Numbered from the stretch's first letter, positions 19,433 through 46,889 are shown. The stretch is DNA of 64,000 nucleotides from Rhodospirillales bacterium (GCA_018662225.1 JABJGO010000088.1:42830-106829), one strand, 5' to 3'. Made by a program: numbers and translations. Notes: generated by a model not told the origin, from the letters alone.

Positions 19433-19456
19433 ATGGGCTCTTCCTTTGATGTCAGG

Positions 19457-29685: not shown

Positions 29686-30300
29686 TCACAGAGCCTTCGG
29701 ACGCACCAGCAGAAGTTTGATGATGTCTTTATAGAGATATTTCTTTTTCACCAAATTCAATCCTGCGGCTTCCAGATACTGCTCTGTATGGCGGTCGAAT
29801 GCGGCGCCGTAGGCTAGACGCACCCATGGTGCCCAAAGGTTCATGATAAACCGTCGCAAGGGATTCTCTGAAATGGCATATTCCAGAATGTAGATGGTGC
29901 CATCGGGACGGCAAACCCGGCGAAGCTCTTCGAGGGCGGGTCGTTGAAGTTCAGGTTCGAGCACGCAAAACAGGAATGTTGAGACAATGGAATCAAAACT
30001 GTCATCGGCCACATCCATCGCCGTCACATTCATTTCCCTAAGCTCGACCACCGTGCCGAGTTTGTCTTTTCGACGGCGGGCACGATCAAGCATGGCCGGG
30101 CTGATGTCTATACCGGTGACCGTGCAGTCATCAGGGTAGAATGGGAAATTGCGCCCGGTGCCGACCCCGGCATCGAGCAATGCACCACTCAGTCCACTAA
30201 ATAGTGTCCGACGTAAATGTCTGTAACGACAGACCTCGAACGGCAGGTCCAGAATATCGTAAAACCAGGCGATGCGTTTATAGGTCTTTTGGCTGTTTAT
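29686..30300 (-). CDS. Class I SAM-dependent methyltransferase (UbiE/PmtA-like)
   Basis: Motif I LDAGVGTGRN. The family-typical N-terminus (YKRIAWFYDILDLPFE) is in frame upstream of the ORF-track TTG. There is no ATG, GTG or TTG between the upstream stop and that region. The 5' end is set at an ATA codon (30300-30298), 5 nt after GGAGG. Confidence 0.7.
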   Translation of the reverse strand: MNSQKTYKRIAWFYDILDLPFEVCRYRHLRRTLFSGLSGALLDAGVGTGRNFPFYPDDCTVTGIDISPAMLDRARRRKDKLGTVVELREMNVTAMDVADDSFDSIVSTFLFCVLEPELQRPALEELRRVCRPDGTIYILEYAISENPLRRFIMNLWAPWVRLAYGAAFDRHTEQYLEAAGLNLVKKKYLYKDIIKLLLVRPKAL

Positions 30301-30309: not shown

Positions 30310-31761
30310 CTACGTCGATACTGGTGATGCTTTTCGCTCAAGTAAGGCCTTGTAACACCCCAAAATCGCCGCGCTTGAGCGGTCGATATCGCGTGCCGTT
30401 GTCCGCCAGTTGCTTAGGGCGATGCGCATGGCATATTGGCCGTGCCACTCCACGCCAGCGACATAACAGGTTCTATCGTGCTGTACTGCCTCAATGACGG
30501 CCCGGGTCATGGCGTCGGTTTGTTCGTCGTCATCGACGATCTGCCCATCAATCAGCCGGTGGAAGCGATAGACCGCCTGATTTAGGACAACATGGTTGAG
30601 TAACTCAACACCGGGCATGCTAATGAGCTGGTCACGCATACGCTGTGACAGGTCACAGCAGCGCTCGATCAATTCCTGAACGCCGTTACGCCCGAGAGTA
30701 CGCAGGGCGGCATAAACACTGACGCCGCGGGCACGGCGCGACAACTCGGGCACAAAGTGCATGGGGTCTTGCCGTTCAGGGCCGTTGTCGGACAGATAAC
30801 TGGCGATGGAACAGGTCGCGGCGCGGTGTGCCGCAGGATCACGAACGATGACCATTGCGCTGTCATAGGGCACGTTGAGCCATTTGTGCGCGTCCACCGC
30901 CCAGGAATCGGCCAGTTCCACCCCGTCACTTAAATGGCACAGATTGGCACTGGCCTGCGCCCACAACCCAAAGGCACCATCAACATGCAACCACGCACCG
31001 TGTTCGCGGCACAGTGCGCTGATTTCTACGAAAGGATCGAATGCACCGGTATTGATCTGTCCGGCCTGGGCGCAAACAATGGTCGGCCCGTCAATTTCGG
31101 CAAGCGTTGCAGCCAGAGCACCGGGAATCATGCGGCCTTGCTCGTCAGCCTCGATCTTTCGCACAGCGTTTTGCCCCAAGCCCAGATAACGCACAGCGGA
31201 GAAAATCGCCAGATGACCTTCTTCACCGGCGATGACGGTCACTTTTGGAGCACCCTGCAAACCGTCTTCTTCTACATCCCAGCCATGTTTTTCCAAAACC
31301 GCATGCCGAGCAGCAGCCAGGCCAACAAGATTAGCCACCGTCGCACCAGTCACCATGCCGACGCTGCATGTGGAGGGCAATTTGAGCAAATCAAGCGCCC
31401 ACTTGGCAGCAACTTCCTCCATGGCGGCGCATGCCGGTGTGGTCTGATAAAAGGCCGTGTTCTGATCCCACGCACTGGTCAACCAGTCCGCCGCGATGGA
31501 AACCGGCAGTGTACCACCCTGAACCCAGGCGAACACGCGCGGCCCAGGCATGGCCATTAGGCCCGGGTCGGCTTTGTGTGCCAGGTCACGGATCACGTTC
31601 AACGGATCTTCGCCACGTTCACTCAGCGGTTGGGAGAATGCCGCGTACATGGAATCTGCGGTAGCGCTGGGCGCAACCGGACGCTCGTCGAGGCCATCAA
31701 GGTATTCCAGAGCCACTCGCGTGGCTTCATGGAGCACGACATTATCGTGGGCGATGGTCAT
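30310..31761 (-). CDS. PLP-dependent (group II) amino acid decarboxylase
   Basis: 483 aa, fold-type I. PLP-lysine context AVDAHKWLNVPYD. Confidence 0.85.
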   Translation of the reverse strand: MTIAHDNVVLHEATRVALEYLDGLDERPVAPSATADSMYAAFSQPLSERGEDPLNVIRDLAHKADPGLMAMPGPRVFAWVQGGTLPVSIAADWLTSAWDQNTAFYQTTPACAAMEEVAAKWALDLLKLPSTCSVGMVTGATVANLVGLAAARHAVLEKHGWDVEEDGLQGAPKVTVIAGEEGHLAIFSAVRYLGLGQNAVRKIEADEQGRMIPGALAATLAEIDGPTIVCAQAGQINTGAFDPFVEISALCREHGAWLHVDGAFGLWAQASANLCHLSDGVELADSWAVDAHKWLNVPYDSAMVIVRDPAAHRAATCSIASYLSDNGPERQDPMHFVPELSRRARGVSVYAALRTLGRNGVQELIERCCDLSQRMRDQLISMPGVELLNHVVLNQAVYRFHRLIDGQIVDDDEQTDAMTRAVIEAVQHDRTCYVAGVEWHGQYAMRIALSNWRTTARDIDRSSAAILGCYKALLERKASPVST

Positions 31762-31846: not shown

Positions 31847-32710
31847 TCACATCAGATACCGCCCCATCAGTTCTTGCAGTTCATCGCGATGATTATGGGG
31901 ATCATGGGCGCTGAGTTGCGCCGGGCTTGAATCGTTCTCCAGCCAGTCGGCACCAAAACAGGGGCGATCTTCGTGGTAAATCATGCCAGTTGGTATTTTG
32001 CCTTCTTCATTTAACGCGAGGGTTTTGACGAACGCAGCACCACGGTCTTCCGCCGTGTATTCCCGATCAGCATCCAGGTCATAAAACCGGGCATTCCAGT
32101 CGGGATAGGTGTCGTGATAGGTCACACATGGCGACAATACTTCCAGGAAGGCAAATCCCTTCTTGGCGCGTACATGCTCAAGCGCCTGGACCATCAGGCT
32201 GTTAAGCTGATCTGCCTGGCGGATAAACCCGCGTGCCAGGAACGTGGTGCCGGGAATGGACAACCCCATAGCGATACCATCAATCGGGGCATCGGCAATC
32301 GCCTGACCGAAACTGCCCGATGTGGGTGAGTCCTGGCCCTTGGTCAAACCATAGACTGCGTTGTTCATAAGGATGTAAAGCACGTTGGCATTGCGTTTGA
32401 AGGCATGAACAAGGTGCCCGGCACCGATGGCGTAACCATCGCCATCACCACCCGCCGCAATAACTGTCAGATCAGGATTTGCAATGGATGCCCCCGTCGC
32501 CGTGGGTAATACACGACCGTGCATGGAATGATAGCCATAAGCATTGACGTTGTTCTGTATGGAACCTGAGCACCCGATGCCCGTTAGCAACATGGTCTCG
32601 CATGGTTGAATGCCAAGCACGTCAAACGCCCGTTCCAGAGCACCCTTGACGCCGTAGTGTCCGCAGCCGGAACACCAGACCGGATTGGTAGGGGTATAGG
32701 TTATTGTCAT
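31847..32710 (-). CDS. 2-oxoacid:acceptor oxidoreductase beta subunit (TPP and Fe-S binding)
   Basis: WCSGCGHYG Cys motif, TPP-binding GGDGDG...NNAVYGLTKGQ. It overlaps the alpha subunit by 4 nt. Confidence 0.85.
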   Translation of the reverse strand: MTITYTPTNPVWCSGCGHYGVKGALERAFDVLGIQPCETMLLTGIGCSGSIQNNVNAYGYHSMHGRVLPTATGASIANPDLTVIAAGGDGDGYAIGAGHLVHAFKRNANVLYILMNNAVYGLTKGQDSPTSGSFGQAIADAPIDGIAMGLSIPGTTFLARGFIRQADQLNSLMVQALEHVRAKKGFAFLEVLSPCVTYHDTYPDWNARFYDLDADREYTAEDRGAAFVKTLALNEEGKIPTGMIYHEDRPCFGADWLENDSSPAQLSAHDPHNHRDELQELMGRYLM

Positions 32711-34500
32711 TGTGCACCCTCCGCATCCTTGATCAGTTCGGCCAGTTCGTCAGTCCAGAACGGCGTTCCATCATATTTACGGATACCGTGAAGTTTGTCT
32801 GGATTAGCGCCCGCCCCGCTCAAGACACGTTCAAGCTGACCGCTCTCTGAATGCTCGACCACATAGACGCGATCACATCCGGCGATAAAATCCAAGGTCT
32901 CATCAAGCATGGGGAACAGAACGCGCGGGCGATGAACCTTCAAGCGCACGCCGTCATTCTCCAACAATCGGTAGGTTTCACTAATGATACCAGCTGCGAC
33001 GCCCACACCGATAATGCCAATCTTTGACGATGTGTCACCATAGGATACAGCCCTTGGCAGTAGCGGCTTTATGGTTCCCAGTTTGCGCGCGCGTTTATCC
33101 ATCATGGTCACGCGGTTGCCCGGCTCAGCGGAAACCTGACCCCACTCATTGCGCTCGTTACCTGTCACAAGGCTCATACCGCCGGGCGTGCCGGGCACAG
33201 CCCAGGGTGAAATACCGTCTTCGGTTACGCTGTAGCGCTTGTACTCATCCAACTCGGCAACCTCAGTCGCGCTCAGCATTTTGCCTGTATTCATCTCAAC
33301 ACTGTCGAGATCGAATACCGGCACCGTCATGCTGTCCTGTGACAGGGCGCGATCAAGGGCGATAAACACCGGGCACTGGGCAATTTGCGCAAGATTTGTT
33401 GCAAGGGCACCTATTTCGAAGCATTCGCTGGCATCACCCGGCGACAAAACGATGCGTGGAAAGTCGCCATTGCCGCCACTGATCATCATGCCGAGATCGC
33501 CCTGCTCAATCTTCGTCGGCATGCCGGTTGACGGCCCGGCACGCTGAGAGTTGACAATCACCATCGGAATTTCGGCTGAACCACAATGGCTGATACTTTC
33601 GCCCATCAAGGCAATGCCGGGACTGGAAGACCCGGTCATGGCGCGCGCACCGGTCAGGGCGGCACCGATGGCCATATTTATGGCCGATAACTCATCCTCG
33701 GCCTGAACCATGACGCCATCGAACTGAGGCAGGTTCGCCCCCAGCCAGTCCATAACCTCGGTCGCGGGTGTGATGGGGTACCCCGCATAAAACCGGCCGC
33801 CGGCAGCCAGAAATCCAAATGCCGCAGCTTCGTTCCCGGTGATAAAAAGGCGTTTCTGTTTTTCTCCAGCGGGCAGTTGCAGCATGCTCTTCCCGGGCGT
33901 TAAGCCCAGTTCATCAGCAACACCAAAGCCCAGTTTCAGGGCCTGGCGGTTACCGTCCAGGGCGCGGGCCGAAAGTTTCTTGAACCGATTTCGCAGATAG
34001 TCGTCTGCGTCGTCGTCGTTCAGTCCAATGACACGGGACAACAATCCAAAACCGAAACTGTTCTTGAACAAATCCCGGCGTAATTCCCGTACAGAAAAAC
34101 GGCTGAATGGCACGGGAAGAACGGTAGCTGTATGAGGGACAATCCCCTCCGGCATGGGCCCGCGTGAGGTGTCATAAATAACAATGGCATCACTGGTCAG
34201 ATACTGACCCCGCATGCGAATGGCTTCTTCATCAAAGGCAACCAGAATATTGATGGCACTGCCCAAACCGCCGAACTGCTCATGCGATCCGCGGACCAGT
34301 GCCGAGGCATGTCCACCTTTGATCCGCGACGCGATATTGCTGGTCCGGTAAAGATGCAGACCATGATGGGCCAGCACATCGGCCAGCAGCGTAATGATGG
34401 TCAGCGAGCCGTCACCGCCCTGACCGGCGACACATACTGTCAGGTCGTCGCACAAGCGGGGCTCAGCCTGAAATTTTCCGGGGTTTGTCATGACATTCAT
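32707..34500 (-). CDS. 2-oxoacid:acceptor oxidoreductase fused gamma-alpha subunit
   Basis: N-terminal gamma-like domain (VAGQGGDGSLT), then an alpha domain (GNEAAAFGFLAAGGRFYAGYPITPATE). Length is 597 aa. Confidence 0.85.
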   Translation of the reverse strand: MNVMTNPGKFQAEPRLCDDLTVCVAGQGGDGSLTIITLLADVLAHHGLHLYRTSNIASRIKGGHASALVRGSHEQFGGLGSAINILVAFDEEAIRMRGQYLTSDAIVIYDTSRGPMPEGIVPHTATVLPVPFSRFSVRELRRDLFKNSFGFGLLSRVIGLNDDDADDYLRNRFKKLSARALDGNRQALKLGFGVADELGLTPGKSMLQLPAGEKQKRLFITGNEAAAFGFLAAGGRFYAGYPITPATEVMDWLGANLPQFDGVMVQAEDELSAINMAIGAALTGARAMTGSSSPGIALMGESISHCGSAEIPMVIVNSQRAGPSTGMPTKIEQGDLGMMISGGNGDFPRIVLSPGDASECFEIGALATNLAQIAQCPVFIALDRALSQDSMTVPVFDLDSVEMNTGKMLSATEVAELDEYKRYSVTEDGISPWAVPGTPGGMSLVTGNERNEWGQVSAEPGNRVTMMDKRARKLGTIKPLLPRAVSYGDTSSKIGIIGVGVAAGIISETYRLLENDGVRLKVHRPRVLFPMLDETLDFIAGCDRVYVVEHSESGQLERVLSGAGANPDKLHGIRKYDGTPFWTDELAELIKDAEGAQ

Positions 34501-35828
34501 GTTTTGGCCTCACCTTCATCTGGCTTTTCATCTATTTGGGGTGCACCCGGCCCGGTCAGATAGAACGTCTTCGGGCACAAACAATCCAGCGCCACACGCT
34601 CTGCCAGATTTGGCATTTGAGCGGGCAGCGGGCGGTTCTTTTTCTTATCCGCCGATAGCTTGTCCATGAGAAACTCACCACGCGGCTCGTCGCTCAAAGG
34701 TCGGGTTTCCAGCAATCCGGCATCAAACGCAGCTTGAAAAGCTTCGTGGCCCCGTTCGGTTCTGATCAAGGTGTAGGTCCAGCCATCAAGGCCAATGCCG
34801 CCGCACCCGATATCGGCATTCTCGGCACCGTAATCGAGGCAATAGAGGCAGGCCGGGCGAGCGAATTCACGATACTTCTTCAGTGATACAGACCTGATCT
34901 CTTCCTCGCCATCAACCCGCACCACAACTTTGCCCTTGATGTTGATGTTATCGATCCGCTTGGGATCGATTTCCAGGATTTCACCCAATTTTTCGATGCT
35001 CTCATGGGTGAAACTTTCCGAACAAAACAGGCCGAACACCAGGGATATGTTATCGCGATACCAGTTGCTCATATCCATGCGAATAGAGGAATTCTGTTGC
35101 AACCGAACACCGTCCACCTGACAGGGCACGCCAACCACCGCGAGGGGGCCAATGTTCGCGCGCATGGCTTGCTGCAAGGCGAGCGTGTTGGGGGCGTAGG
35201 TATAGCGCGACGCGGCACAACCCAGTACATCGTCTCTGGTTCTTGCCAGCTTGTGACGACCGATCTGCCGGTTGTCCGGATAAACGTCACCCGTGACAGC
35301 ACCTTTCAGTGTTCCCGTATCAAGGCCATGGATAATCATGGTCGAGACCACACCGCCATCCTGGCATTTGGCGAGAACATCAGGATCGGTAGAACGGGCA
35401 TAGAGGCCGTATGAGTACTCGCCGTAGCTTGACGGCTCATGCGTTTCGCCCGCCGGTGGTTCTTTGAAATTCAGTATTTCCGGCAGGTCATTATCCGTGG
35501 GACGCAAGACCGGGCAGACTTCGGCGCAAAGGATGCAGTAGACGCACGCATCGGCTCTGGTATCGATGGGTGTTTCGTTCACATAGTCAAATACATCGAC
35601 CGGGCAAATACTAACACACGACGCACAGCCGATACACTTGCCTGGCTCAACCACCTGTTTCATCATGAAATCATTGGCCTTGAAGCCGCCGCGATTGATT
35701 TCTGTGCGCCAGGCAAAGGCCCATTCGTTAGGATCTGCGCCTTCATTAATCAACATGCGATAACGCGTATCCACATCAGCGGTACTTTTATCAAGGACAC
35801 GTTCTGTCATTTGTGTACGATCTTTCAA
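34497..35828 (-). CDS. FrhB/FdhB/FpoF-family (F420 hydrogenase/dehydrogenase beta-like) flavo-Fe-S protein with an N-terminal 2x[4Fe-4S] ferredoxin domain
   Basis: CIGCASCVSICP and CVYCILCAEVCP, followed by FrhB-like blocks (CQDGGVVST; AVVGVPCQVDG; GLFCSESF; CLYCLDYGAENADIGCGGIG; LIRTERG). It overlaps the OFOR alpha gene by 4 nt. Confidence 0.8.
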   Translation of the reverse strand: MKDRTQMTERVLDKSTADVDTRYRMLINEGADPNEWAFAWRTEINRGGFKANDFMMKQVVEPGKCIGCASCVSICPVDVFDYVNETPIDTRADACVYCILCAEVCPVLRPTDNDLPEILNFKEPPAGETHEPSSYGEYSYGLYARSTDPDVLAKCQDGGVVSTMIIHGLDTGTLKGAVTGDVYPDNRQIGRHKLARTRDDVLGCAASRYTYAPNTLALQQAMRANIGPLAVVGVPCQVDGVRLQQNSSIRMDMSNWYRDNISLVFGLFCSESFTHESIEKLGEILEIDPKRIDNINIKGKVVVRVDGEEEIRSVSLKKYREFARPACLYCLDYGAENADIGCGGIGLDGWTYTLIRTERGHEAFQAAFDAGLLETRPLSDEPRGEFLMDKLSADKKKNRPLPAQMPNLAERVALDCLCPKTFYLTGPGAPQIDEKPDEGEAKT

Positions 35829-35883: not shown

Positions 35884-35915
35884 GTAAACTTGAAAAAGGG
35901 TTGTTTTCGCGTAAC
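35884..35915 (+). promoter_or_regulatory. Copy 1 of the conserved 32-nt motif GTAAAC-N21-GTAAC
   Basis: GTAAACTTGAAAAAGGGTTGTTTTCGCGTAAC, located in the 127-bp divergent region between the FrhB-like/OFOR operon and cofE. Confidence 0.65.
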
Positions 35916-35955: not shown

Positions 35956-36726
35956 ATGACCACCGCTATCGAAGCTTTTGCTGTTCCCGGTATTCCCCTG
36001 CTGAAAGCGGGCGATGATCTGGCGGCTATTATCTATGAAAGCCTGAAGGCGGGCGATCGTTTGCTCGTGGACGGTGATATTGTCGTGATTGCCCAAAAGG
36101 CCGTTTCCAAGGTCGAGGGGCGTACGGTTGATCTCGGGACCATCACGCCGTCTGCCAGGGCTGAGGAAGTGGCCGCGAAATGTGAAAAAGATCCCCGCGA
36201 AGTGGAGGTCATACTGTCTGAATCCACACAAATCTTGCGGACCGGCGAAAATCTACTGATCGTCGAGCACCGTAACGGCGCAATCCTTGCCAATGCCGGG
36301 GTGGACCGCTCCAATGTTTCTTCTGATTCCGGTCAGGAGAACGTGTTGCTGTTGCCCGTGGATGCCGATGCCAGCGCCCGCGCATTATGCAAGCAATTCC
36401 GAGAGATCAGCGGTAAAGATGTGGCCGTGATTATCAATGACAGCCTGGGTCGACCGTGGCGGCTGGGCACAACGGGTGTGGCAATCGGCGTTGCGGGTAT
36501 GCCTGCTCTCGTCGATTTGCGCGGTGACACAGACCTGTTCGGGCGGGAACTGAAAGTCAGTGTCCAGGCCATTGCTGATGAACTTGCCGCAACCGGAGGC
36601 CTGCTTCAGGGGCAGGGTGCCGAGGGTCAGCCGGTTGCCGTCATACGCGGCGACTTTGGCTGGGATGAGGACGAAAGTCCGGCCACGGCCTTGATCAGAC
36701 CAGAAGACATGGACCTGTTTCGATGA
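35956..36726 (+). CDS. cofE: Coenzyme F420-0:L-glutamate ligase (stand-alone CofE type, no nitroreductase domain)
   Basis: 256 aa with CofE-like blocks (GDIVVIAQKAVSKVEGR; NAGVDRSN). It overlaps cofD by 4 nt. Confidence 0.85.
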   Translation: MTTAIEAFAVPGIPLLKAGDDLAAIIYESLKAGDRLLVDGDIVVIAQKAVSKVEGRTVDLGTITPSARAEEVAAKCEKDPREVEVILSESTQILRTGENLLIVEHRNGAILANAGVDRSNVSSDSGQENVLLLPVDADASARALCKQFREISGKDVAVIINDSLGRPWRLGTTGVAIGVAGMPALVDLRGDTDLFGRELKVSVQAIADELAATGGLLQGQGAEGQPVAVIRGDFGWDEDESPATALIRPEDMDLFR

Positions 36727-37667
36727 CGATATCTGTTGTTGCCCTATCTGGTGGTGTAGGCGGGGCCAAGCTGGCTTCGGGCCTGTCGCGTGTTGTGGCA
36801 CCGGGAAATTTGCTGGTTGCAGCAAATACCGGCGATGACTTTACTCATATGGGGTTGCACATTTCACCGGATATCGATTCCATCTTCTATGCGGTGACTG
36901 ATTTGAACAACACCGAGACCGGTTGGGGACGTGTGGGTGAAACCTGGAATTTTATGGCCGCTCTGAAGGAATTTGGCGGTGAGGACTGGTTCAATCTTGG
37001 TGACAGTGATCTGGCCATGCATGTACTGCGCAGCCACTGGCTGCGCCAGGGGAAATCATTAAGTGAGGTTACTGACCGTTTCTGTCAGGCAATGAAGGTC
37101 TCATTCAAACTGGCGCCCATGAGTGATGACCCGGTTGCGACGATGATCGAGTCGGATCGTGGCACCTTACCCATGCAGGATTATTTCGTGCGCGAACACT
37201 GTGAACCTGTTGCGAAGGCCTTTTCTTATGAAGGAGCTACCGAAGCGCGCGCCAATCCTGAACTGATGCAGGCCCTCAAAGACGGTTCTCTGCAAGCCAT
37301 CATCATCTGCCCCTCCAATCCATACCTGAGCATTGATCCCATTTTCAGCTTATCAGAAATCAGGGATCAACTCAGAGCCGCAAACGTGCCCGTTATCGCT
37401 GTTTCCCCCATAGTCGGTGGTGCAGCCCTCAAAGGACCGCTTGGCAAGATCATGGCTGAGTTGAAAATCGAGCCAAGTTCTCTCTCCATCGCTAAACACT
37501 ATGGTGATCTGATTGATGCGTTGGTGATTGATGAAAGCGATGCCCATGAGTGTGAAAGCATCGAAGCACTCGGCATCCGCGCCCATACCGCACCGACCAT
37601 TATGAAGACCGTGGACGATCAAAAGGTGCTGGCGAAGAAGGTGCTGGAACTCGTTGGCGTTGAATAA
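36723..37667 (+). CDS. cofD: 2-phospho-L-lactate (or analogue) transferase, CofD/FbiA
   Basis: N-terminal ALSGGVGGAKLASGL and overall CofD layout. Length is 314 aa. Confidence 0.85.
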   Translation: MTISVVALSGGVGGAKLASGLSRVVAPGNLLVAANTGDDFTHMGLHISPDIDSIFYAVTDLNNTETGWGRVGETWNFMAALKEFGGEDWFNLGDSDLAMHVLRSHWLRQGKSLSEVTDRFCQAMKVSFKLAPMSDDPVATMIESDRGTLPMQDYFVREHCEPVAKAFSYEGATEARANPELMQALKDGSLQAIIICPSNPYLSIDPIFSLSEIRDQLRAANVPVIAVSPIVGGAALKGPLGKIMAELKIEPSSLSIAKHYGDLIDALVIDESDAHECESIEALGIRAHTAPTIMKTVDDQKVLAKKVLELVGVE

Positions 37668-37670: not shown

Positions 37671-38462
37671 TTAGTCACGTTGCCAACTGGGTTTGCTGCG
37701 GTCGAAGAAACAGGCCAGGCCTTCTTCGGTCTCGGATTCTTCCCAGCGGTCGGCCAGTCGTTCGGCTGATGCGCTCTGGTAGTTGTGACCCGGATTTCGG
37801 GCCAGTTCGATCATCCACGCTTTGGTATTGGTAACCGCGCCCGGTGCGCATTCTAAGAACAGATTGATCTGTTTATCCGTGGCTTCGTCCAGTTCACTGG
37901 CCGGAACGGCTTTGCTGACCAGACCAAGGCCCTGTGCCTCGTGTCCGTCAAAGGAGCTGGCATTGAGCGCGACCTGACGCACAGCCCGCTCTCCCATGCG
38001 GGCCGCGATAAACGGGCCAATAGTAGCGGGGATCAGGCCCAGCTTGGTCTCGGTCAGGGCAAAGCGGGCATCTTGCACAGCAATCACGATGTCGCAAACT
38101 GCCATTATACCGATGCCGCCGCCGTAGGCCTGCCCATTAACCCGCGCAATTACCGGTTTCGTCAGTTCGTCCAGTTCCTTGAGCATCGTCGCCAGTTCGG
38201 TTGCCTGGGCAATACGCCCGGCCCGATCGCTTTCAACCTGCTCCTTCATCCAGCCCAAATCGCCACCGGCGCAAAAGCTCTTGCCTTCACCGCTCAACAC
38301 CACGACGCGGACTTTATCATCACCATCAATTTGCATTAGGGCGGCGCGCAAATCGGCAATCATCTGGGCATTCAGGCTGTTATGTTTATCCGGACGATTG
38401 AGCGTCAGACGGGCCACACCACGTCCATCAACGTCCAGCCGGATAGTTTCAAACGCACTCAT
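37671..38462 (-). CDS. Enoyl-CoA hydratase/isomerase family protein (methylglutaconyl-CoA hydratase-like)
   Basis: Crotonase fold (FCAGGDL; GQAYGGG). Start set at MSAFETIRL (38462). The longer ORF-track version would overlap the upstream lyase gene by 148 nt. Confidence 0.8.
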   Translation of the reverse strand: MSAFETIRLDVDGRGVARLTLNRPDKHNSLNAQMIADLRAALMQIDGDDKVRVVVLSGEGKSFCAGGDLGWMKEQVESDRAGRIAQATELATMLKELDELTKPVIARVNGQAYGGGIGIMAVCDIVIAVQDARFALTETKLGLIPATIGPFIAARMGERAVRQVALNASSFDGHEAQGLGLVSKAVPASELDEATDKQINLFLECAPGAVTNTKAWMIELARNPGHNYQSASAERLADRWEESETEEGLACFFDRSKPSWQRD

Positions 38463-38467
38463 GACGA

Positions 38468-39328
38468 TTACCCTTCCTGCTTTATGGCCATGACGAGGTG
38501 TTCGGCTTCGGCGAGTTTCAAGGTGTCCACGCCCGTATCGAACCCAAGTTCCGCCAATCTTTGTGCCACAGCGCGTGTATCCACATTGCCTTTGGCACCA
38601 TGCGCGTAAGGACAACCACCGAGGCCACCGACCGCTGTATCGAAAGTGCGCAAATCAAAACGCAGGCTTTCCTCGATATTCCCAAGGGCATTATCGCCTG
38701 TGTCATGGAAATGCCCGGCGAGTTTATCTGGTGGCACGACGCTGACGACGGCTTCCAGCATGGCCGCAACCGTCTCCGGGTTGCCCGAACCGATGGTATC
38801 ACCGAGGGATATCTCATAGCAGCCCATATTGAGCAGGCTCTCGGCCACGCGGGCGACCTGTGATGGTGCGACCGGTCCATCGTAAGGACACGCCACCACA
38901 CAGGACACATAGCCACGAACCGGAATACCATCTTTATTGGCCGCCGCCATCACGGGTTCAAACCGTTCCAAGCTTTCGGCAATGGAGCAATTGATGTTTT
39001 TCTGGCTAAAACCTTCCGAGGCGGCAGCGAACACAGCCACTTCGTCGGCGTCGGCCTTATGGGCACGCTCATAACCCTTCAGGTTTGGCGTCAAAGCCGC
39101 ATAGCGGATACCGGGTTTGCGATTGATCCCGGCCAACACTTCGGCCGCATCGGCAAGTTGTGGTACCCACTTGGGAGAGACAAAGGCTGTCGCTTCAATG
39201 CGCGTGAGGCCGCATTGGGAAAGCAGATTAATCAACGCCACCTTCCGATCTGTGGCGATCTTGGCTGACTGGTTTTGTAAACCGTCGCGAGGACCAACTT
39301 CAAACAGGCAAATGGAGTCAGAGGCCAT
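38468..39328 (-). CDS. Hydroxymethylglutaryl-CoA lyase (HMGL-like family)
   Basis: EVGPRDGLQN N-terminus and HFHDTGDNALGN metal-site region. Length is 286 aa. Confidence 0.85.
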   Translation of the reverse strand: MASDSICLFEVGPRDGLQNQSAKIATDRKVALINLLSQCGLTRIEATAFVSPKWVPQLADAAEVLAGINRKPGIRYAALTPNLKGYERAHKADADEVAVFAAASEGFSQKNINCSIAESLERFEPVMAAANKDGIPVRGYVSCVVACPYDGPVAPSQVARVAESLLNMGCYEISLGDTIGSGNPETVAAMLEAVVSVVPPDKLAGHFHDTGDNALGNIEESLRFDLRTFDTAVGGLGGCPYAHGAKGNVDTRAVAQRLAELGFDTGVDTLKLAEAEHLVMAIKQEG

Positions 39329-39346: not shown

Positions 39347-41734
39347 TTACGCAGACTTGGTGTAAATGAGCGGATTGTTGATGATGGGGCTCAATGGTGC
39401 CGCATTAAATGAGGTTTCCCGAATGGTTTTCGGCACAGGTTGGTAAAGCGTTGTTCGTTGCTCAGGGGTTCGGTCCATCCCCGCAATCAACGCTTCCATG
39501 TCTTCTGGTGGCATTTCCTGGCCGTGAGAACTTCCGGCTGCACGACTGATACTCTCGTTCATTAAAGTGCCACCCAGATCATTGCACCCGGCTTTGAGGG
39601 CTGCAATTGCTCCTTCCGGGCCCATTTTGGTCCACGACGTTTGAATATTGGTAATATGTGGGTGCAGGACCAATCGGGCCACCGCATGCATTAATACCGC
39701 TTCGCGGAATGTGGGGCCTCGGCGGACAGCGCTTTTCAAGAAGAATGGTGCCTCCATATGGACAAACGGCAGCGGAACGAACTCCGAAATACCACCCGTG
39801 GTTTTCTGAATATCGCGCAGTAATAATAAGTGTCTGGCCCAGTGAACAGGGCGTTCGATATGGCCAAACATGATGGTCGATGTGGTTCCGATCCCCGCTT
39901 CATGAGCGGCCATAATTACCTCGCCCCATTGGGCTGTATTGATCTTATCTTTGCAGAGCACATCGCGAATTTCATCATCAAGAATTTCCGCCGCCGTCCC
40001 GGGCAGCGATCCCAGGCCCGCCTCACGCAGCATGACCAGATAATCAGCGAGACTCATGGCCAGTGTCTCAGCCCCGTGCCACACCTCCAGCGGCGAAAAG
40101 GCATGCATATGAATGTCAGGAAAGGCATTCTTCACCGAGCGGCAGATATCAACGTAGGTCTCACCCGTGTAGGAAGGATGAATACCACCCTGCATACAGA
40201 CTTCCGTTGCGCCCCGCGTCTGGGCCTCGTTCACCCGGCGAAGAATCTCGTCCATGGTCAGATCATAGGGTGCCCCGCGCAGGGCTTCGGCTTTCTTGCC
40301 CTTGGAAAAGGCGCAGAACCCACATTTGAAATAACACACGTTGGTATAGTTGATGTTGCGGTTGACCACATAGGTCACCGTATCGCCATTGACCTCGCGG
40401 CGCAGGCTGTCAGCGGCATCACAGACTGTTGTGAAATCTTCGCCCCGTGCCGAAAATAATGTCTCGACTTCACCCTGTTTCAGGTCGTGCCCGTCTGCCG
40501 CCTTCGACAGCAGGCGGGCCAATCCGACGCTGACGTGAGGCGCGGTTGCACGGCTCCGAATTTCAGGTGGTGGAGTTTTGCATCCGGTCATCCAGCCATC
40601 ACCACGGGCGAACCCATGCGAGTCAATGTTTTCAAATACGGCTGAGCGTAGCTTGGGTTCAATCCATGCCTCGTTATTGAAAATGTATGCCGGGTAAACC
40701 GCCAGACGTTCCAACAGGGTTTTACCAGTCTTGGCTGTTTCCACTGCCAGTGCATCGATTTCGGGCCACGGTGCTTCCGGGTTAACGAAGTCCGGCGTTA
40801 CCGGCGAGATGCCACCCCAATCATTGATACCAGCACCAATCATCGCTTGCCCCAGACCGGGGCTAAGGTTTGGCGGTGCCTGAATGCTCATATCCGGGCC
40901 AAATATGTGGCGTGCTGTGGCGATGGCCCACAACAGGTATTTTGTATCTGGCTCCGGCGAAGCAGACATTTTCGTGCCAGATTTGGCACGGAAATTCTGC
41001 ACAATAATTTCCTGAATATGGCCGTAGCGATCGTGCAGGTCTCGCAACGCAATCAGAGACTGGATACATTCTTCGCGGGTTTCGCCGATCCCGATCAGAA
41101 TGCCTGATGTCATGGGTACACAAAGTTCACCCGCAAGGCGCAAGGTTTCGAGCCTCAGCGACGGAACCTTGTCCGGTGATCCGTAGTGGGGCCCACCCTT
41201 TTCACACAACCGCTCAGACGTGCTTTCCAGCATCAGCCCCATGGAAACAGAAACGCCTTTGAGCATCCGTATTTCATGGGCGTTCATCAAGCCGGGATTG
41301 ATGTGTGGCAGCAATCCGGTTTCCTTGAAAACGAGGTCGGCCATGGCGGCCACGTATTCCAGCGTGGACTCAAATCCCATCTGCTGCAATTCTTCCCGGG
41401 CCAGCCGGAACCGTAATTCCGGTTTGTCGCCCAGGGTAAACAGCGCTTCCTTGCATCCGGTGGCTTGGCCCTGTCCGGCGATCGCCAGCACCTCGTCAGC
41501 GCTCATATAGACGCGTTGCCCGGCCTTCGGTGGTTGGGTAAATGTGCAGTAATGACAAACGTTGCGGCATAACTGGGTAAGGGGGATAAAAACTTTCCGT
41601 GAATACGTTACGACGTTGCCGTGCCCCTGATCACGCAATCGGGCCGCCGTTCTCATCAGATCGTTCAGATCGGATGAAACCAGCGCGTCCAGTTCTGGCG
41701 TTACAGACCCGGCATAGGGGCGGATAACATTCAT
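39347..41734 (-). CDS. fbiC: FO synthase, fused CofG/CofH (FbiC), two radical-SAM domains
   Basis: 795 aa with two CxxxCxxC motifs (CRNVCHYCTF; CYFKCGFCAF). Confidence 0.9.
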   Translation of the reverse strand: MNVIRPYAGSVTPELDALVSSDLNDLMRTAARLRDQGHGNVVTYSRKVFIPLTQLCRNVCHYCTFTQPPKAGQRVYMSADEVLAIAGQGQATGCKEALFTLGDKPELRFRLAREELQQMGFESTLEYVAAMADLVFKETGLLPHINPGLMNAHEIRMLKGVSVSMGLMLESTSERLCEKGGPHYGSPDKVPSLRLETLRLAGELCVPMTSGILIGIGETREECIQSLIALRDLHDRYGHIQEIIVQNFRAKSGTKMSASPEPDTKYLLWAIATARHIFGPDMSIQAPPNLSPGLGQAMIGAGINDWGGISPVTPDFVNPEAPWPEIDALAVETAKTGKTLLERLAVYPAYIFNNEAWIEPKLRSAVFENIDSHGFARGDGWMTGCKTPPPEIRSRATAPHVSVGLARLLSKAADGHDLKQGEVETLFSARGEDFTTVCDAADSLRREVNGDTVTYVVNRNINYTNVCYFKCGFCAFSKGKKAEALRGAPYDLTMDEILRRVNEAQTRGATEVCMQGGIHPSYTGETYVDICRSVKNAFPDIHMHAFSPLEVWHGAETLAMSLADYLVMLREAGLGSLPGTAAEILDDEIRDVLCKDKINTAQWGEVIMAAHEAGIGTTSTIMFGHIERPVHWARHLLLLRDIQKTTGGISEFVPLPFVHMEAPFFLKSAVRRGPTFREAVLMHAVARLVLHPHITNIQTSWTKMGPEGAIAALKAGCNDLGGTLMNESISRAAGSSHGQEMPPEDMEALIAGMDRTPEQRTTLYQPVPKTIRETSFNAAPLSPIINNPLIYTKSA

Positions 41735-42438
41735 CCTGACCTCAGTTCACTCATATGAGCATATTCATCAAACCGCTCGAGAACACCGATGTTTGCCAGA
41801 TATCGCGCCGTGCGCGTGTCAGAATTCCACTCCATAAATGCGGGCAGGTCATCTGGTGTATCAAGATCAAGCGCCAATCCCAAAGAAGGAACCACCGTTG
41901 GCGCCAGGCCCATGTGAATCGCCGCACTCTTGTGCGCTGAAAAGCTGTTCTCGCCAAATTGGGGGGTGATCACATCCGCTGGTGTGCACAACAGGGCATT
42001 GGTCCCGCCGCCATCCCATGCCGGAATCACTGTTACAGCCGGGGCGGCGCCATGATTGAAGATAATTCGATCGATTTCTTCCGCACAAACCAGTGGTACG
42101 TCGCCCGGAATGCTGATCATACCCGCGCAACCCCGGGCATCAAGATATCGCCCGGCTGTGGCCACGGCCTCACACAAACCGCAGCTTGTTGTCTCGCTCA
42201 GCACTTCCGCGTCAAATGTCTTCGCCAACTCCATGGCATCACGCTCACAGGTAACGACCAGCGTGCCGGCAATATTTGAAGCCTTCGACAAAGCGTCAAG
42301 CACATCACCGAGCATGGCATACGATAATTGCTGGCGTTCACGGGTATTCAACACGGGAGACAGGCGCTGCTTTGCCAGATCAAATCGTTTGACCGGAACA
42401 ACGGCCCAAATACCAAATAGGGGTTCGTTTTGGTTCAT
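41731..42438 (-). CDS. cofC: CofC/FbiD-type guanylyltransferase for F420 side-chain activation
   Basis: VVPVKRFDLAKQRL N-terminus, GGTNAL, DLDTPDDL. It overlaps fbiC by 4 nt. Confidence 0.8.
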   Translation of the reverse strand: MNQNEPLFGIWAVVPVKRFDLAKQRLSPVLNTRERQQLSYAMLGDVLDALSKASNIAGTLVVTCERDAMELAKTFDAEVLSETTSCGLCEAVATAGRYLDARGCAGMISIPGDVPLVCAEEIDRIIFNHGAAPAVTVIPAWDGGGTNALLCTPADVITPQFGENSFSAHKSAAIHMGLAPTVVPSLGLALDLDTPDDLPAFMEWNSDTRTARYLANIGVLERFDEYAHMSELRSG

Positions 42439-42445: not shown

Positions 42446-43201
42446 CTACCTCACCACCCGTGCCCGGGCTTTGGCAACGGCTTCCTGACGTTCCGGTGAA
42501 GACAGTAATTTTTTGCGCTCATTTTCCCAAAATTCAGGATCATAGCTGTCGCTGTCCATGGCGTTCAAAAGCCGCTTGGTTGCGTCCACCGCGCCTCGAA
42601 CATTGTCGCCAGCCCATTTGGCAATTGCCAGCGCGGCCTCAAGGCAGCTATCACTTTTGACAACGGATGAGACAATACCGGCATCAAGTGCCGCATCAGC
42701 ATCATACCGTTCGCCCAGGACCAGCAAGCTCATAATCGCATCGCGGCCCAACAATTTGCGCAAGCGTATCACTGATTTGGGACTGTACAGTAATCCTAGG
42801 CGCGTGGCGGGGACCTGAAATATGGCGTTCGACGCCGCAATCCGTACATCGCAGGTAACGGCTACGTCGAATGCGCCACCCATGCAGGGGCCATCAATGG
42901 CGGCGATGACCGGAACTGGGGCCTCGCGAATGGCTGTGGTAACAGCCTCAATAGCATCATCAACGGCCAGGTCCTCAATGGTGCCGTTTAACTCCGTCAA
43001 ATCACCGCCGGCGCTGAAGCATCCACCCGACCCGTGCAGGATGACTGCGCTTGTGTCATCTCTGACTTCACTGGTCAGGGCTTGATGGAGTTCACCGAGC
43101 AGAGCCCTTGACAACGCATTCTTGCGCTCGGGCCTGTTCAGGGTCAGGACAAGTGTGCCATCTTGATGATTAACGTTGATCAGTTCATTCATGCAAGACA
43201 C
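42446..43201 (-). CDS. Enoyl-CoA hydratase/isomerase family protein
   Basis: Crotonase signatures (FSAGGDL; DGPCMGGAF). Length is 251 aa. Confidence 0.8.
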   Translation of the reverse strand: MSCMNELINVNHQDGTLVLTLNRPERKNALSRALLGELHQALTSEVRDDTSAVILHGSGGCFSAGGDLTELNGTIEDLAVDDAIEAVTTAIREAPVPVIAAIDGPCMGGAFDVAVTCDVRIAASNAIFQVPATRLGLLYSPKSVIRLRKLLGRDAIMSLLVLGERYDADAALDAGIVSSVVKSDSCLEAALAIAKWAGDNVRGAVDATKRLLNAMDSDSYDPEFWENERKKLLSSPERQEAVAKARARVVR

Positions 43202-45429
43202 TCCTTGAATTGTGCTGCCTTCGATGATTCGTGATCATTCAGCGTGCGCCAAACCTGTTCCGGTGTCATGGGTAAATTATACTGACGCACACCGATAGCG
43301 TCATAAATGGCATTAGCGACGCAACCCGCGACGGGGATTACCGGCGGTTCCCCAATTGTTTTGGCGCCTGCGGGGCCATTGTCTTCAAACACTGGTGAAA
43401 AATATACATTTACCTGGGGCACATCAGGGAAGGTGGGTACTCGGTCATCCAGATAGCTGGGATTTAGCAACTGGCCGTTCTTTGAAACGGACGTGGTTTC
43501 AGATAGTGCCATACCAAGCCCTTGTACAACGCCGCCAATGACCTGGCCGATGGCCCCAAGGGGGTTAATGATCGTACCCGCATCGTGGGCTGCCCAGTAT
43601 TCTTCAACGGTAGACTTGCCGGTGAGGGTATCAACCTTCACACAACAACCGTGTACAGCGAATGTGTAGGCCGAGGCGATATTGCCGAAACCATGTATGT
43701 CAGCCGCGATCACACCCTTGGGTTTGTACTGTCCGGCTGCATGGAGTTCGTTTGCTCGACTTTTTGCAAGGGCGAGTTTGGCAATCTCGGCAATGGATGC
43801 ATTGGTTGAAATGCCGAGTTCCTTTACCAGGCTCATGCAGTTTTCCATGAATTTCTGGCACGCAATAATAGCGGCATGGGCGACAAAATATGAAGTTCGG
43901 CTGGCATAACTTCCGCGCCCGAAAGGCCCCGTTGCCGTATGCCCAAGCACAATTCTGAGCGAGTCCCGCGTAACACCCAGCTCCCGTTCAACGGTATGCC
44001 GGAGAACTTCTGCCGTACCACAACCCAGTTCCACCTCGCCCGAGGCGACGCAAATCATGCCATCAGCATTGACATCGATAGTGACATTGGAAATATCCGA
44101 GGTCTCATCATAGCCAGAGTTGCTGACACAATGGATGGCAGTGGAGAGGCCATAACCGTATTTAAAACGATCACCGGAACCAGACCGCTCCTGATTGCGA
44201 TGAGCCTGCATTTGTTCCTCGACTGTATCGAGGCAATCACCGTATCCACAGCTACTGATTTCCCATCCATGGATGCTGGTATCACCAGCGCCAACTGTAT
44301 TTCGGCGGCGCATATGCGCAGGATCGAGCCCAATCTTGCGGGCAAGTTCATCGACCAGTTGTTCCTGGGCAAATGTTGACTGCGGAATGCCGAAACCGCG
44401 GAAGCATTCGGTTGGCATATTGTTAGTATAAATCAATTGCCCCCGAGCCCTGACGGCGGCGTACTTGTAGAGATTGTCACCGCGCACCGCCGATGCCAGC
44501 ATGACTGGTGGCCCATGCAAGGTATAGGCACCATTGTCGGCCCAAACTTCAGTTTCCTTGGCCACAAGCTCGCCGTCTGATGTAGCACCGATGCGCATCT
44601 TTAAACGTGTAGCAAGACGGGTTCGGCCCGCCATCATGTCATCGCGATGTGATAGTACCAAGGCAACGTCACGCTGCAGTTTATGAGCAAACGCGAGGCA
44701 AACCAGATGCGTGGGATGTTCCCACTTGGCACCAAACGATCCACCCATGTCAGGTGTTACCACATCAACCGTGGCACCCCAGTGCTTTGCGATTTCGCTA
44801 TAACGACTGGCCAGCACGGAGGGGGCATGGGAGGCACTGACCAGTTCCAGATGGTCGCCACTTACACGAACGAAACACGCGCGAGGTTCCAGGTAGGCAT
44901 GAGGAACAGCCGCTGTTTCAAAGATGCCTTCCACCCAATGGGTGGCGCGTGCGGCGGCGTCATGCCAATCACCGGGGTTGGCAGAAAACCGGTCAGCAAC
45001 ATTATCTGGACAGGCTTCGTGCAGCGGTACTTCAAGCGCAAGGGCATCATCCACTCTGATGGCGTGAGGCAGAATTTCATAATCAATTTCAAGTGCGGCA
45101 ATTCCGGCGATCAAGGCTGCGTCATTGATGGCTGCCACAGCAGCCACGCCTTCACCCACATAACGAACGTGCGACGCTAAAACCGGTTCATCTGCAATGT
45201 GATGGCCCAGGGTAATATCCGCAAAATCTTCGGACGTCAGGACGCCCAGCACACCAGGAATGTTCATTGCTTTTTCTGTATTGATGCGAACAACACGGGC
45301 ATGGGCGTGAGGGCTACGGGCCAACCCGGTTACAGCTGTTTCCGGCGGGATCAAATCAGCCGTATAATGCGCCCGCCCGCAGCAACGATCCGAGATAGTC
45401 GCAATCTTCGGCGGGGGCATATATGACAT
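43189..45429 (-). CDS. Molybdopterin-binding large subunit of a xanthine dehydrogenase/CO dehydrogenase-family hydroxylase
   Basis: About 746 aa with a/b-hammerhead and MoCo-binding domain similarity. Start set at MSYMPP (45429), where TAATG overlaps the small-subunit stop. Confidence 0.85.
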   Translation of the reverse strand: MSYMPPPKIATISDRCCGRAHYTADLIPPETAVTGLARSPHAHARVVRINTEKAMNIPGVLGVLTSEDFADITLGHHIADEPVLASHVRYVGEGVAAVAAINDAALIAGIAALEIDYEILPHAIRVDDALALEVPLHEACPDNVADRFSANPGDWHDAAARATHWVEGIFETAAVPHAYLEPRACFVRVSGDHLELVSASHAPSVLASRYSEIAKHWGATVDVVTPDMGGSFGAKWEHPTHLVCLAFAHKLQRDVALVLSHRDDMMAGRTRLATRLKMRIGATSDGELVAKETEVWADNGAYTLHGPPVMLASAVRGDNLYKYAAVRARGQLIYTNNMPTECFRGFGIPQSTFAQEQLVDELARKIGLDPAHMRRRNTVGAGDTSIHGWEISSCGYGDCLDTVEEQMQAHRNQERSGSGDRFKYGYGLSTAIHCVSNSGYDETSDISNVTIDVNADGMICVASGEVELGCGTAEVLRHTVERELGVTRDSLRIVLGHTATGPFGRGSYASRTSYFVAHAAIIACQKFMENCMSLVKELGISTNASIAEIAKLALAKSRANELHAAGQYKPKGVIAADIHGFGNIASAYTFAVHGCCVKVDTLTGKSTVEEYWAAHDAGTIINPLGAIGQVIGGVVQGLGMALSETTSVSKNGQLLNPSYLDDRVPTFPDVPQVNVYFSPVFEDNGPAGAKTIGEPPVIPVAGCVANAIYDAIGVRQYNLPMTPEQVWRTLNDHESSKAAQFKECLA

Positions 45430-45884
45430 TATCCGACTTCCACAATAGCTTTGGTCAGCTGCTGATATCCACCGCAGCGGCAGATATTTCCCGCCACCAG
45501 TTTCGATACCGGCTCGACCCCCGTTTCGGTTCCGCCATCCTTGATCCAGGAACTCATTACGGCCATGCCGCCTGTGCAAAACCCACACTGTACGCCGCCG
45601 TGCTTCTCACAGGCGCAGGAAAATCTTTCGAGATGATCCTTTTGTAATCCTTCAACAGTCGTGATTTCGCGCCCCTCAACCACGCCACTGAGCAGCAGGC
45701 ACGAACACATGGGTTGTCCATCCACCAGTACCGTACAGGCACCGCAGTCACCTTCGCTGCAACCGTCTTTTACCCCGGTCAGGCCAAGTTTGGTGCGCAG
45801 AAAATCGATCAATCGCCGTGCGTACCAGACGTCGGGGATATCGTGGTTATGACCATTTACACGTACTGACTTATTGGCCATCAT
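45429..45884 (-). CDS. [2Fe-2S]-binding small subunit of the molybdenum hydroxylase
   Basis: CSEGDCGACTV and CGFCTGG...CRCGGY motifs. Length is 151 aa. Confidence 0.9.
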   Translation of the reverse strand: MMANKSVRVNGHNHDIPDVWYARRLIDFLRTKLGLTGVKDGCSEGDCGACTVLVDGQPMCSCLLLSGVVEGREITTVEGLQKDHLERFSCACEKHGGVQCGFCTGGMAVMSSWIKDGGTETGVEPVSKLVAGNICRCGGYQQLTKAIVEVG

Positions 45885-46857: not shown

Positions 46858-46889
46858 GTAAACTTGAAAAAGGGTTCGCATTACGTAAC
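46858..46889 (+). promoter_or_regulatory. Copy 2 of the conserved 32-nt motif GTAAAC-N21-GTAAC
   Basis: GTAAACTTGAAAAAGGGTTCGCATTACGTAAC. It ends 9 nt before the LysR ATG (46899), in the region divergent from the Mo-hydroxylase/cofC/fbiC operon. Confidence 0.65.

Follow-up and report, generated by a model that had tools for sequence, protein, structure and literature searches.

The closest described counterparts of the system analyzed here are the zeta subunit of ACDS (8RIU) and FwdI (8RJA) of Ca. Ethanoperedens thermophilum, both of which carry a 2x[4Fe-4S] ferredoxin domain ahead of an FrhB-like [4Fe-4S]/FAD domain, and structures together with assays have established that these modules redirect the electrons of CODH and Fwd from ferredoxin to F420 (Lemaire, Wegener and Wagner 2024, PMC11493965). 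We examined a 64,000-nucleotide stretch of DNA from a Rhodospirillales bacterium (GCA_018662225.1 JABJGO010000088.1:42830-106829, hereafter the window), in which three minus-strand genes between positions 31847 and 35828 encode an FrhB-like F420-reductase subunit and the alpha and beta subunits of a 2-oxoacid:ferredoxin oxidoreductase (OFOR). Such a module, familiar as a partner of hydrogenase, formate dehydrogenase, Fpo, sulfite reductase, CODH and Fwd, is joined here to an OFOR of two subunits, and the bacteria that carry the pair are aerobic and belong to several phyla. Judging from sequence comparison, this trio likely encodes a stable 2-oxoacid:F420 oxidoreductase complex, and it would probably make reduced F420 (F420H2) directly from a keto acid of central metabolism.

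The first-pass annotation of the window had already named the trio a candidate 2-oxoacid:F420 oxidoreductase, and profile hidden Markov models (HMMs), placement within the FrhB family and linkage to F420 genes lend computational support to that candidacy. It had also stated that no characterized enzyme was known to it that couples 2-oxoacid decarboxylation directly to F420 reduction and, to our knowledge, there is none. The idea itself, however, was proposed in 2022, when F420 reduction by pyruvate decarboxylation was suggested from genomes in which the FrhB6 paralogue of ANME-1 archaea is clustered with pyruvate:ferredoxin oxidoreductase (PFOR) genes (Chadwick et al. 2022, PMC9012536). As summarized in the same source, F420-linked pyruvate oxidation in early reports on methanogen extracts was later ascribed to ferredoxin-mediated secondary reduction. 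A 2021 review of F420 confines the FrhB-type "FDRC" family to Euryarchaeota and mentions neither pyruvate nor 2-oxoglutarate (PMC8498797), every sequence of the FrhB-type class of Mascotti et al. 2021 is archaeal (PMC8518648), and full-text literature searches returned no description of a bacterial trio of this kind. Within FrhB, FAD serves as the one-/two-electron switch that passes hydride to F420 (PMC3930138). Two-subunit OFORs normally use diffusible ferredoxin, and the absence of a delta domain in StOFOR leaves an open pocket that was modelled to accept an external dicluster ferredoxin (PMC5020499).

The OFOR operon and its FrhB-like subunit

The same three minus-strand open reading frames (ORFs) that the first-pass annotation had called were recovered. 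The first (34497-35828) encodes the FrhB-like subunit, 443 aa long from a TTG start, with an alternative ATG start at 35810 (residue 7) that yields the 437 aa of public gene calls. The second (32707-34500) encodes a 597-aa OFOR alpha subunit with a fused gamma domain, and the third (31847-32710) the 287-aa OFOR beta subunit. At both junctions, 34497-34500 and 32707-32710, the minus strand reads ATGA, which bears out the 4-nt start/stop overlaps reported earlier. A scan of the operon for sigma-70 promoters and terminators gave nothing beyond shuffled expectation. The profile-HMM assignments agreed with the prediction for all three products, namely FrhB_FdhB_N and FrhB_FdhB_C for the first protein, POR and POR_N for the second and TPP_enzyme_C for the third.

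The FrhB-like subunit combines a ferredoxin domain with an FrhB-type [4Fe-4S]/FAD domain, the architecture of ACDS zeta and FwdI. Its dicluster ferredoxin domain (residues 57-110; 35499-35660, minus strand) is recognized by Pfam as a Fer4 dicluster at residues 59-107 (Fer4_21 and related models) and aligns with the N-terminal domains of 8rja_E and 8riu_B. The two CxxCxxCxxxCP motifs ascribed to this protein lie at C65-C75 and C95-C105, and the ligands of the two [4Fe-4S] clusters are C65/68/71/75 and C95/98/101/105. Further downstream, Pfam, phmmer against the PDB and alignment place FrhB_FdhB_N at residues 143-218 and FrhB_FdhB_C at residues 229-380 (34689-35402, minus strand), both above the gathering thresholds of the Pfam pair PF04422/PF04432 (E 1.5e-15, 57.5 bits vs a threshold of 22, and E 3.8e-34, 118.2 bits vs 23.3, respectively). 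The peptides QDGGVVS, VVGVPCQV and CLYCLDYGAENADIGCGG, quoted in the first-pass annotation, were all found in the translation. The FrhB-domain [4Fe-4S] is ligated by C236, C269, C327 and C330, and all 12 Fe-S cysteines, eight in the ferredoxin domain and four at the FrhB cluster, are 100% conserved among 27 family members from several phyla. The FAD motifs, also conserved in the family (QDGG 156-159, SRYT 207-210 and GLFCSE 266-271), correspond to the FAD loops of MmFrhB at 23-30 (24QDGG), 71-77 (73GTKYT77) and 131-138 (PMC3930138).

Two further segments set the family apart. The N-terminal extension (residues 15-56; 35661-35786, minus strand) carries the motif P.EW..AWR.E.NRGGF and has a mean top-residue frequency of 0.74 in 27 sequences, the same as the catalytic core, while the C-terminal extension (residues 399-431; 34536-34634, minus strand) begins where FrhB alignments stop at about residue 398. 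Neither segment occurs in FrhB and both are conserved as strongly as the core, which makes them candidate docking elements; we infer that the N-terminal one may be the anchor to the OFOR.

The placement of this subunit among FrhB-family proteins was investigated by sequence and by fold. In phmmer searches against the PDB the best match was FrhB (9r51_B, 2e-41, 145 bits; 3zfs_C, 5e-40), with FwdI (8rja_E) and ACDS zeta (8riu_B) at about 1e-35 and 124-126 bits, in alignments that begin at residue 53-58 and therefore include the ferredoxin domain, and with Fsr (7np8_A) at 1e-26 and 97 bits. An AlphaFold model built from 50 homologues served solely the search with the FrhB-core fold, for which Foldseek returned 8riu_B (3e-21) and 8rja_E (1.5e-20) as top matches and then FrhB, Fsr, HCAR and FdhB. 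The first-pass annotation had named a grouping with the ferredoxin-dependent HCAR/BciB proteins among the adverse outcomes; instead, HCAR (5dqr) scored 4.5e-12 and 48 bits, vs 145 bits for FrhB and 124-126 bits for zeta and FwdI, and ranked 13th by Foldseek, after zeta, FwdI, FrhB and Fsr. No hydrogenase genes for FrhA/FrhG partners were found in the window or the related loci, and no nuo/fpo genes for an Fpo/Nuo-like complex lie nearby.

On the OFOR side, the gamma-alpha fusion and the thiamine pyrophosphate (TPP)/Fe-S beta subunit claimed earlier agree with Pfam, TIGR03710 and conserved motifs. The alpha subunit matches POR (gamma; 8.8e-20) and POR_N (3.6e-50), passes TIGR03710 for 2-oxoacid:acceptor oxidoreductase alpha subunits (546.6 bits vs a cut-off of 482.75), and contains both YPITP and, within the QRAGPSTGMPTK motif, the catalytic Arg, conserved in 23 loci. 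The beta subunit matches TPP_enzyme_C (1.6e-22, 80.4 bits) and PFO_beta_C (3.6e-6, 27.4 bits), falls under the TIGR02177 subfamily cut-off (223 bits vs 261.9) and has no delta or ferredoxin domain; its TPP/Mg site GDGD...NN and a single [4Fe-4S] ligated by C13, C16, C47 and C195 are conserved in 22 loci. Taken together, the motifs for OFOR catalysis are retained in 21-23 loci. The nearest structures are those of MmOGOR, 6n2n_A for alpha (1e-87) and 6n2n_B for beta (2.6e-47), the latter together with 5b48_B.

Two positions of the substrate pocket are specific to the family and almost invariant. Position 50 of beta is Ser/Thr in 22/22 sequences, vs Lys49 in StOFOR1 and Arg in MmOGOR, and position 448 of alpha is a nearly invariant Asn, vs Asp468 in StOFOR1 and Leu in 2-oxoglutarate oxidoreductases (OGORs). 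The K49I mutant of StOFOR1 lost its 2-oxoglutarate activity (PMC5020499). There is no basic residue at beta 50, and PRK09627 reached 194 bits vs its cut-off of 579. Because these pocket residues differ from those of OGORs and StOFOR1, they give a weak hint that the substrate may be something other than 2-oxoglutarate.

Conservation, F420 linkage and competing explanations

The conservation of the trio was assessed in 30 loci, 27 of them from one genome per GTDB species and three from further long contigs (L036-L038), with neighbors assigned by tblastn with the window proteins and by called-gene tables. The loci span at least five bacterial phyla and comprise, within the Proteobacteria, Rhodospirillales and other Alphaproteobacteria as well as Spongiibacteraceae, Acidiferrobacteraceae and other Gammaproteobacteria, and outside them Acidimicrobiia and other Actinomycetota, Thermoleophilia/Gaiellales, Dehalococcoidia and Poribacteria. 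As far as the contigs reach, the order FrhB-like, alpha, beta on one strand is kept in 30/30 loci, with ATGA overlaps at the trio junctions in several of them, and no ferredoxin gene appears in the called-gene tables of those loci that have such tables. Pairwise identities of the FrhB-like subunit correlate with those of alpha at r = 0.945 and of beta at r = 0.934, and the alpha-beta value is 0.961; the FrhB-like subunit tracks its partners as tightly as they track each other, which indicates that the trio is inherited as a unit.

In the window, a complete F420 biosynthesis set (cofC, cofD, cofE and fbiC) lies within 7 kb of the trio. It starts with cofE for F420-0:glutamate ligase (35956-36726, plus strand; TIGR01916 280.5 vs a cut-off of 180.65), which stands alone at 256 aa, and cofD for 2-phospho-L-lactate transferase (36723-37667, plus strand; TIGR01819 294.6 vs 257.45). 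The divergent arrangement of cofE-cofD reported earlier was confirmed, with the gap of 127 bp holding from the TTG start of the FrhB-like gene (145 bp from the ATG start). The set is completed by fbiC, a CofG/CofH fusion of 795 aa, and cofC (39347-42438, minus strand; NF006687 1126.5 vs 1018 and TIGR03552 144.7 vs 105).

Across the sample, 13 loci, the window and 12 others, have F420 biosynthesis genes no more than about 10 kb from the trio, several times in the same operon. Immediately 3' of the trio are cofE-cofD in L001, L003 and L007 and cofE-cofD-cofC-fbiC, all on one strand, in L009, L012, L023 and L024, while the trio is followed by cofD-cofE-cofC-fbiC in L038 and by cofD-cofC-fbiC in L037; cofE lies immediately 5' in L015 and L016. 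In L036, a contig of 1.24 Mb, a CofC-FbiC fusion lies 4 kb 3' of the trio; the apparent fusion (17818-20937) is a single 1039-aa product with CofC, radical-SAM and CofH_C domains. Genes for luciferase-like (LLM) oxidoreductases, candidate consumers of F420H2, flank the trio in L001 (five paralogues), L023, L024, L037 and L038.

The family amounts to one full-length representative plus fragments among 1.84 billion representatives clustered at 50% identity. Beyond it, at 41-46% identity, the nearest sequences come from Thaumarchaeota and Caldiarchaeum, as stand-alone ferredoxin-FrhB genes, and from a Chloroflexota group located beside a lipoate-type 2-oxoacid dehydrogenase E1/E2 cluster. Since these relatives pair otherwise or stand alone, the OFOR partnership is a trait of this bacterial clade. 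The orphan archaeal genes (L031 6001-7173 and L033 6001-7203, from Thaumarchaeota/Nitrososphaerota and Caldiarchaeum) are candidate free-standing ferredoxin:F420 oxidoreductases of aerobic archaea. A Chloroflexota ferredoxin-FrhB homologue of 395 aa, about 41% identical (L035 3644-8188), is divergent beside genes for a lipoate-type 2-oxoacid dehydrogenase (E1alpha, E1beta and E2, with no E3 in view), and may be a second case, independent of the first, in which keto-acid oxidation is paired with an FrhB-type module.

In the enzyme that we propose, the alpha-beta core would carry out TPP- and CoA-dependent oxidative decarboxylation of a 2-oxoacid, with electrons leaving singly to the lone [4Fe-4S] in beta. 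The dicluster ferredoxin domain of the 443-aa subunit would fill the pocket where free ferredoxin docks in two-subunit OFORs, so that electrons would run over its two [4Fe-4S] clusters to the FrhB-domain [4Fe-4S] and on to FAD, which would gather two electrons and pass a hydride to F420. The cofactor sites identified supply every link of this chain from TPP to FAD. The resulting F420H2 could supply the F420H2-dependent luciferase-like oxidoreductases encoded nearby. The stability of the complex, F420 as its acceptor and the direction of electron flow are the parts of this scheme that we infer. With F420 at about -340 mV and the acyl-CoA + CO2/2-oxoacid couple at about -500 mV, the oxidative direction would be strongly exergonic.

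Several observations weigh against this scheme. All trio relatives found come from metagenome-assembled genomes or metagenomes, and the AlphaFold model, although good in the FrhB core, has a mean pLDDT of 65 and falls below 40 in the ferredoxin domain. No cof genes were found within 10 kb of the trio in the Dehalococcoidia loci, in most Actinomycetota loci or in the gammaproteobacterial L021; Chloroflexota and Actinomycetota are known F420-producing phyla (PMC8498797). It is unlikely, in our estimate, that the flavo-Fe-S exit is real but delivers to NAD(P)+, rubredoxin, a quinone or another small redox protein, although the FrhB family gives some grounds for it: HCAR (5dqr) has the same fold and works with ferredoxin and chlorophyll, not F420; the FrhAGB of Thermococcus, going by the title of PMC13333549, reduces rubredoxin; and the window subunit fails the equivalog cut-offs for both FrhB (TIGR03289, 170 bits vs 331.5; PRK09325, 190 vs 269) and FpoF/FqoF (105-107 bits vs 444-475). 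Moreover, the literature on F420-reductase structures defines no residue-level F420-binding determinants that separate F420 users from HCAR-type proteins, the Fsr crystals showed no F420 density (PMC10229431) and the F420 pocket was empty in the cryo-EM structure of Frh (PMC3930138); because no FrhB-protein structure has F420 bound, F420 specificity is not readable from residues. The proximity of the trio to F420 biosynthesis genes in 13 loci of several phyla nevertheless argues for F420, as do the adjacent F420-type LLM genes and the wide separation in score between FrhB/FwdI/zeta and HCAR. A different division of labor, in which a free-standing ferredoxin:F420 oxidoreductase, or a self-contained ferredoxin-F420 reductase, is co-expressed with an ordinary ferredoxin-dependent OFOR and the two communicate by transient docking or soluble ferredoxin, seems improbable to us. 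No OFOR or redox partner was found near the archaeal ferredoxin-FrhB genes, and since these nearest relatives stand alone, a module of this kind may need no fixed partner; a diffusible ferredoxin is usual for two-subunit OFORs (PMC5020499). Against such an arrangement stand the gene order kept in every locus, the ATGA overlaps, the co-variation of the FrhB-like subunit with alpha and beta, the conserved extensions absent from FrhB, and the lack of ferredoxin genes in the called-gene tables of those loci that have them.

The interleaving of the trio with cofE, cofD, cofC and fbiC in single operons could also point to a role in F420 biosynthesis itself, as a source of low-potential electrons for FbiC or for dehydro-F420-0 reduction. 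Radical-SAM enzymes require a low-potential reductant, and the stand-alone CofE has no FbiB nitroreductase domain; yet Dehalococcoidia and Actinomycetota retain the trio with no cof genes beside it, supply to a radical-SAM enzyme would not require an FAD/F420-type hydride module, and no known F420 pathway employs an OFOR (reviewed in PMC8498797), which leaves this role very unlikely. Least credible is reverse operation as an F420H2-driven 2-oxoacid synthase carboxylating acyl-CoA, a possibility that we regard as extremely remote. OFORs are reversible in principle and the nearest solved relative, MmOGOR, acts in the reductive tricarboxylic acid cycle, but established thermodynamics place F420 about 160-180 mV too positive for reductive carboxylation (about -500 mV), an equal argument has been published for the ANME FrhB-PFOR clusters (PMC9012536), and the host carries the genes of an aerobic heterotroph, with GMC oxidoreductases and with oxygenases of the Rieske, TauD and PhyH types. 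A stable complex oxidizing a 2-oxoacid with F420 as the acceptor is the reading that we retain.

Neighboring genes and a shared upstream element

Two genes follow OFOR beta on the same strand, one for a pyridoxal phosphate (PLP)-dependent decarboxylase that resembles PanP/diaminobutyrate decarboxylase below cut-offs (30310-31761) and one for an S-adenosylmethionine (SAM) methyltransferase (29686-30180). Both were considered as parts of the operon and rejected: tblastn gave no counterparts in the 27 GTDB loci, both are absent from the gene tables of L036-L038, and beyond the window the two genes occur together solely in contigs of that genome. Within the F420 cluster, two genes of CoA metabolism, for an enoyl-CoA hydratase and an HMG-CoA-lyase-like protein (37671-39328, minus strand), part cofD from fbiC. 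The hydratase ORF from its TTG at 38615 runs 148 nt into the end of the HMG-CoA-lyase-like gene, and since public gene calls give a 263-aa hydratase, this mechanically assigned start is over-extended. As the window CofE lacks the FbiB-type nitroreductase domain, a dehydro-F420-0 (phosphoenolpyruvate) route would need another reductase; otherwise the organism would use 2-phospholactate or 3-phosphoglycerate.

Two plus-strand LLM genes in the window encode candidate F420H2 consumers. The product of the first (47928-48962) matches Pfam Bac_luciferase and has F420-dependent LLM and Mer families as its best NCBIfam matches, all below cut-off, while that of the second (57090-58091) passes TIGR03619 for F420-dependent LLM-class oxidoreductases (175 vs 166.9). 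The first of them opens an LLM-centered catabolic set (47928-56898) with counterparts beside the trio and cof genes of two other lineages (L037 700-4476 and L038 1976-9174), which comprises an LLM, an alpha/beta-hydrolase, an enoyl-CoA hydratase, a short-chain dehydrogenase/reductase (SDR), an acyl-CoA synthetase, an acyl-CoA dehydrogenase, a CoA-transferase and an amidase, accompanied by a LysR or TetR regulator, and which is probably an F420H2-consuming pathway. Between cofC and the LysR/LLM cluster lies a coxLSM-like Mo-hydroxylase with large, [2Fe-2S] and FAD subunits (43189-46813, minus strand), also present near the trio at L037 4636-8188 and L013 819-3029. Further along the window is a homologue of the MttB methyltransferase family (59127-60584, plus strand; 2.2e-80). 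Non-pyrrolysine members of this family are common in marine Alphaproteobacteria, and we take this one to be such a member, presumably acting on a quaternary amine.

The motif GTAAAC-N21-GTAAC occurs in four exact copies in the window vs 0.38 expected, and five matches are found with at most one mismatch, a number reached in 0/100 shuffles. The copy at 35884-35915 (plus strand; GTAAACTTGAAAAAGG-N-CGTAAC) is promoter/operator-like and faces cofE, 41 nt ahead of its ATG. The other exact matches lie at 46858-46889 (plus strand), at 47835-47866 (minus strand) ahead of the first LLM gene and at 56992-57023 (plus strand) ahead of the second, so that copies sit 5' of cofE, a LysR regulator and two LLM genes. 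A wider element of about 45 nt, cGTAAACtTGAAAAAgG-N12-cGTAAC-N4-TTCATG, is present four times and resembles a sigma-70-type promoter (TTGAAA, 16-nt spacer, TAACnT) with a flanking direct repeat. The first-pass annotation had described this motif as common to F420-linked operons including that of the OFOR; the four copies stand, but the copy in question looks like the cofE promoter instead of that of the OFOR operon. The element may mark a small F420 regulon under the adjacent LysR protein. When searched for in all related loci, the motif was present solely in contigs of the same genome, which makes it lineage-specific and places it outside the conserved system.

Meaning and comparison with known systems

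Little is understood of how bacteria beyond the Actinobacteria maintain F420 in its reduced state, and the bacterial routes commonly named are those of FGD (glucose-6-phosphate) and Fno (NADPH). If the trio acts as proposed, F420H2 would be drawn straight from central carbon metabolism, and the driving force would be large. This would account for the trio in or beside the F420 biosynthesis clusters of several phyla and help to explain why F420-type luciferase-like enzymes are so numerous in sponge symbionts and in marine bacteria that degrade dissolved organic matter. The principle of a bolt-on F420 reductase, known from CODH and Fwd in archaea, would reach a third enzyme class and aerobic bacteria, and F420H2 regeneration from a cheap substrate could serve biocatalysis. 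We consider it evenly balanced whether the trio is the founding member of a widespread bacterial enzyme that would be the main F420H2 source in marine and sponge-associated Proteobacteria, SAR202-type Dehalococcoidia, Acidimicrobiia, Thermoleophilia and Poribacteria, moving between phyla in a self-contained "F420 cassette" of cofC/cofD/cofE/fbiC, trio and LLM-centered catabolic genes, and thereby the first bacterial FrhB-type F420 enzyme and the first direct link between TPP-dependent keto-acid oxidation and F420.

Other OFORs have been combined with reductases of hydride carriers, as in the pyruvate:NADP+ oxidoreductase of Euglena/Cryptosporidium, the 2-oxoglutarate:NADP+ enzyme KorABC of Azoarcus and the phenylglyoxylate:NAD+ enzyme PadEFGHI. 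In these enzymes, as proposed for the trio, a flavoprotein module turns one-electron output into hydride transfer, but their carrier is NAD(P)+ and their flavoproteins are unrelated to FrhB. Like MmOGOR of Magnetococcus marinus (6N2N) and StOFOR1/2 of Sulfolobus tokodaii (5B46-5B48), the window OFOR has a gamma-alpha fusion with a separate beta, one [4Fe-4S], no delta domain and an open pocket for ferredoxin, and it also carries YPITP, the four Cys, the TPP motif and the catalytic Arg; those enzymes work with diffusible ferredoxin, and the window OFOR departs from them at the pocket residues beta 50 and alpha 448. The FrhB-like subunit in turn keeps the four cluster cysteines, the FAD loops and the fold of FrhB (3ZFS, 4OMF, 4CI0, 6QGR, 9R51), with TM-scores of 0.73-0.77 normalized to FrhB, whereas its ferredoxin domain is fused and FrhB obtains one from FrhG; genes for FrhA/FrhG are not nearby.

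In gene content, ANME-1 FrhB6 offers a parallel, as an FrhB-family gene clustered with a 2-oxoacid:ferredoxin oxidoreductase. FrhB6, however, is archaeal and its role a genomic inference, whereas the nearest relatives of the window family are the Thaumarchaeota/Aigarchaeota orphans, and archaeal PFORs usually consist of several subunits rather than of an alpha-beta pair. The closest comparison remains that with ACDS zeta and FwdI. The window subunit likewise consists of a ferredoxin domain, an FrhB-type domain and a C-terminal extension, at 26-27% identity (Foldseek) and with about 55 extra conserved N-terminal residues. Its partner is a TPP-dependent OFOR, not CODH or Fwd, and its hosts are aerobic bacteria, unlike the anaerobic alkane-oxidizing archaea of zeta and FwdI. 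The archaeal modules rewire a normally ferredoxin-linked, CO2-releasing enzyme to F420, as structure and assay establish, and the window trio would follow the same logic.

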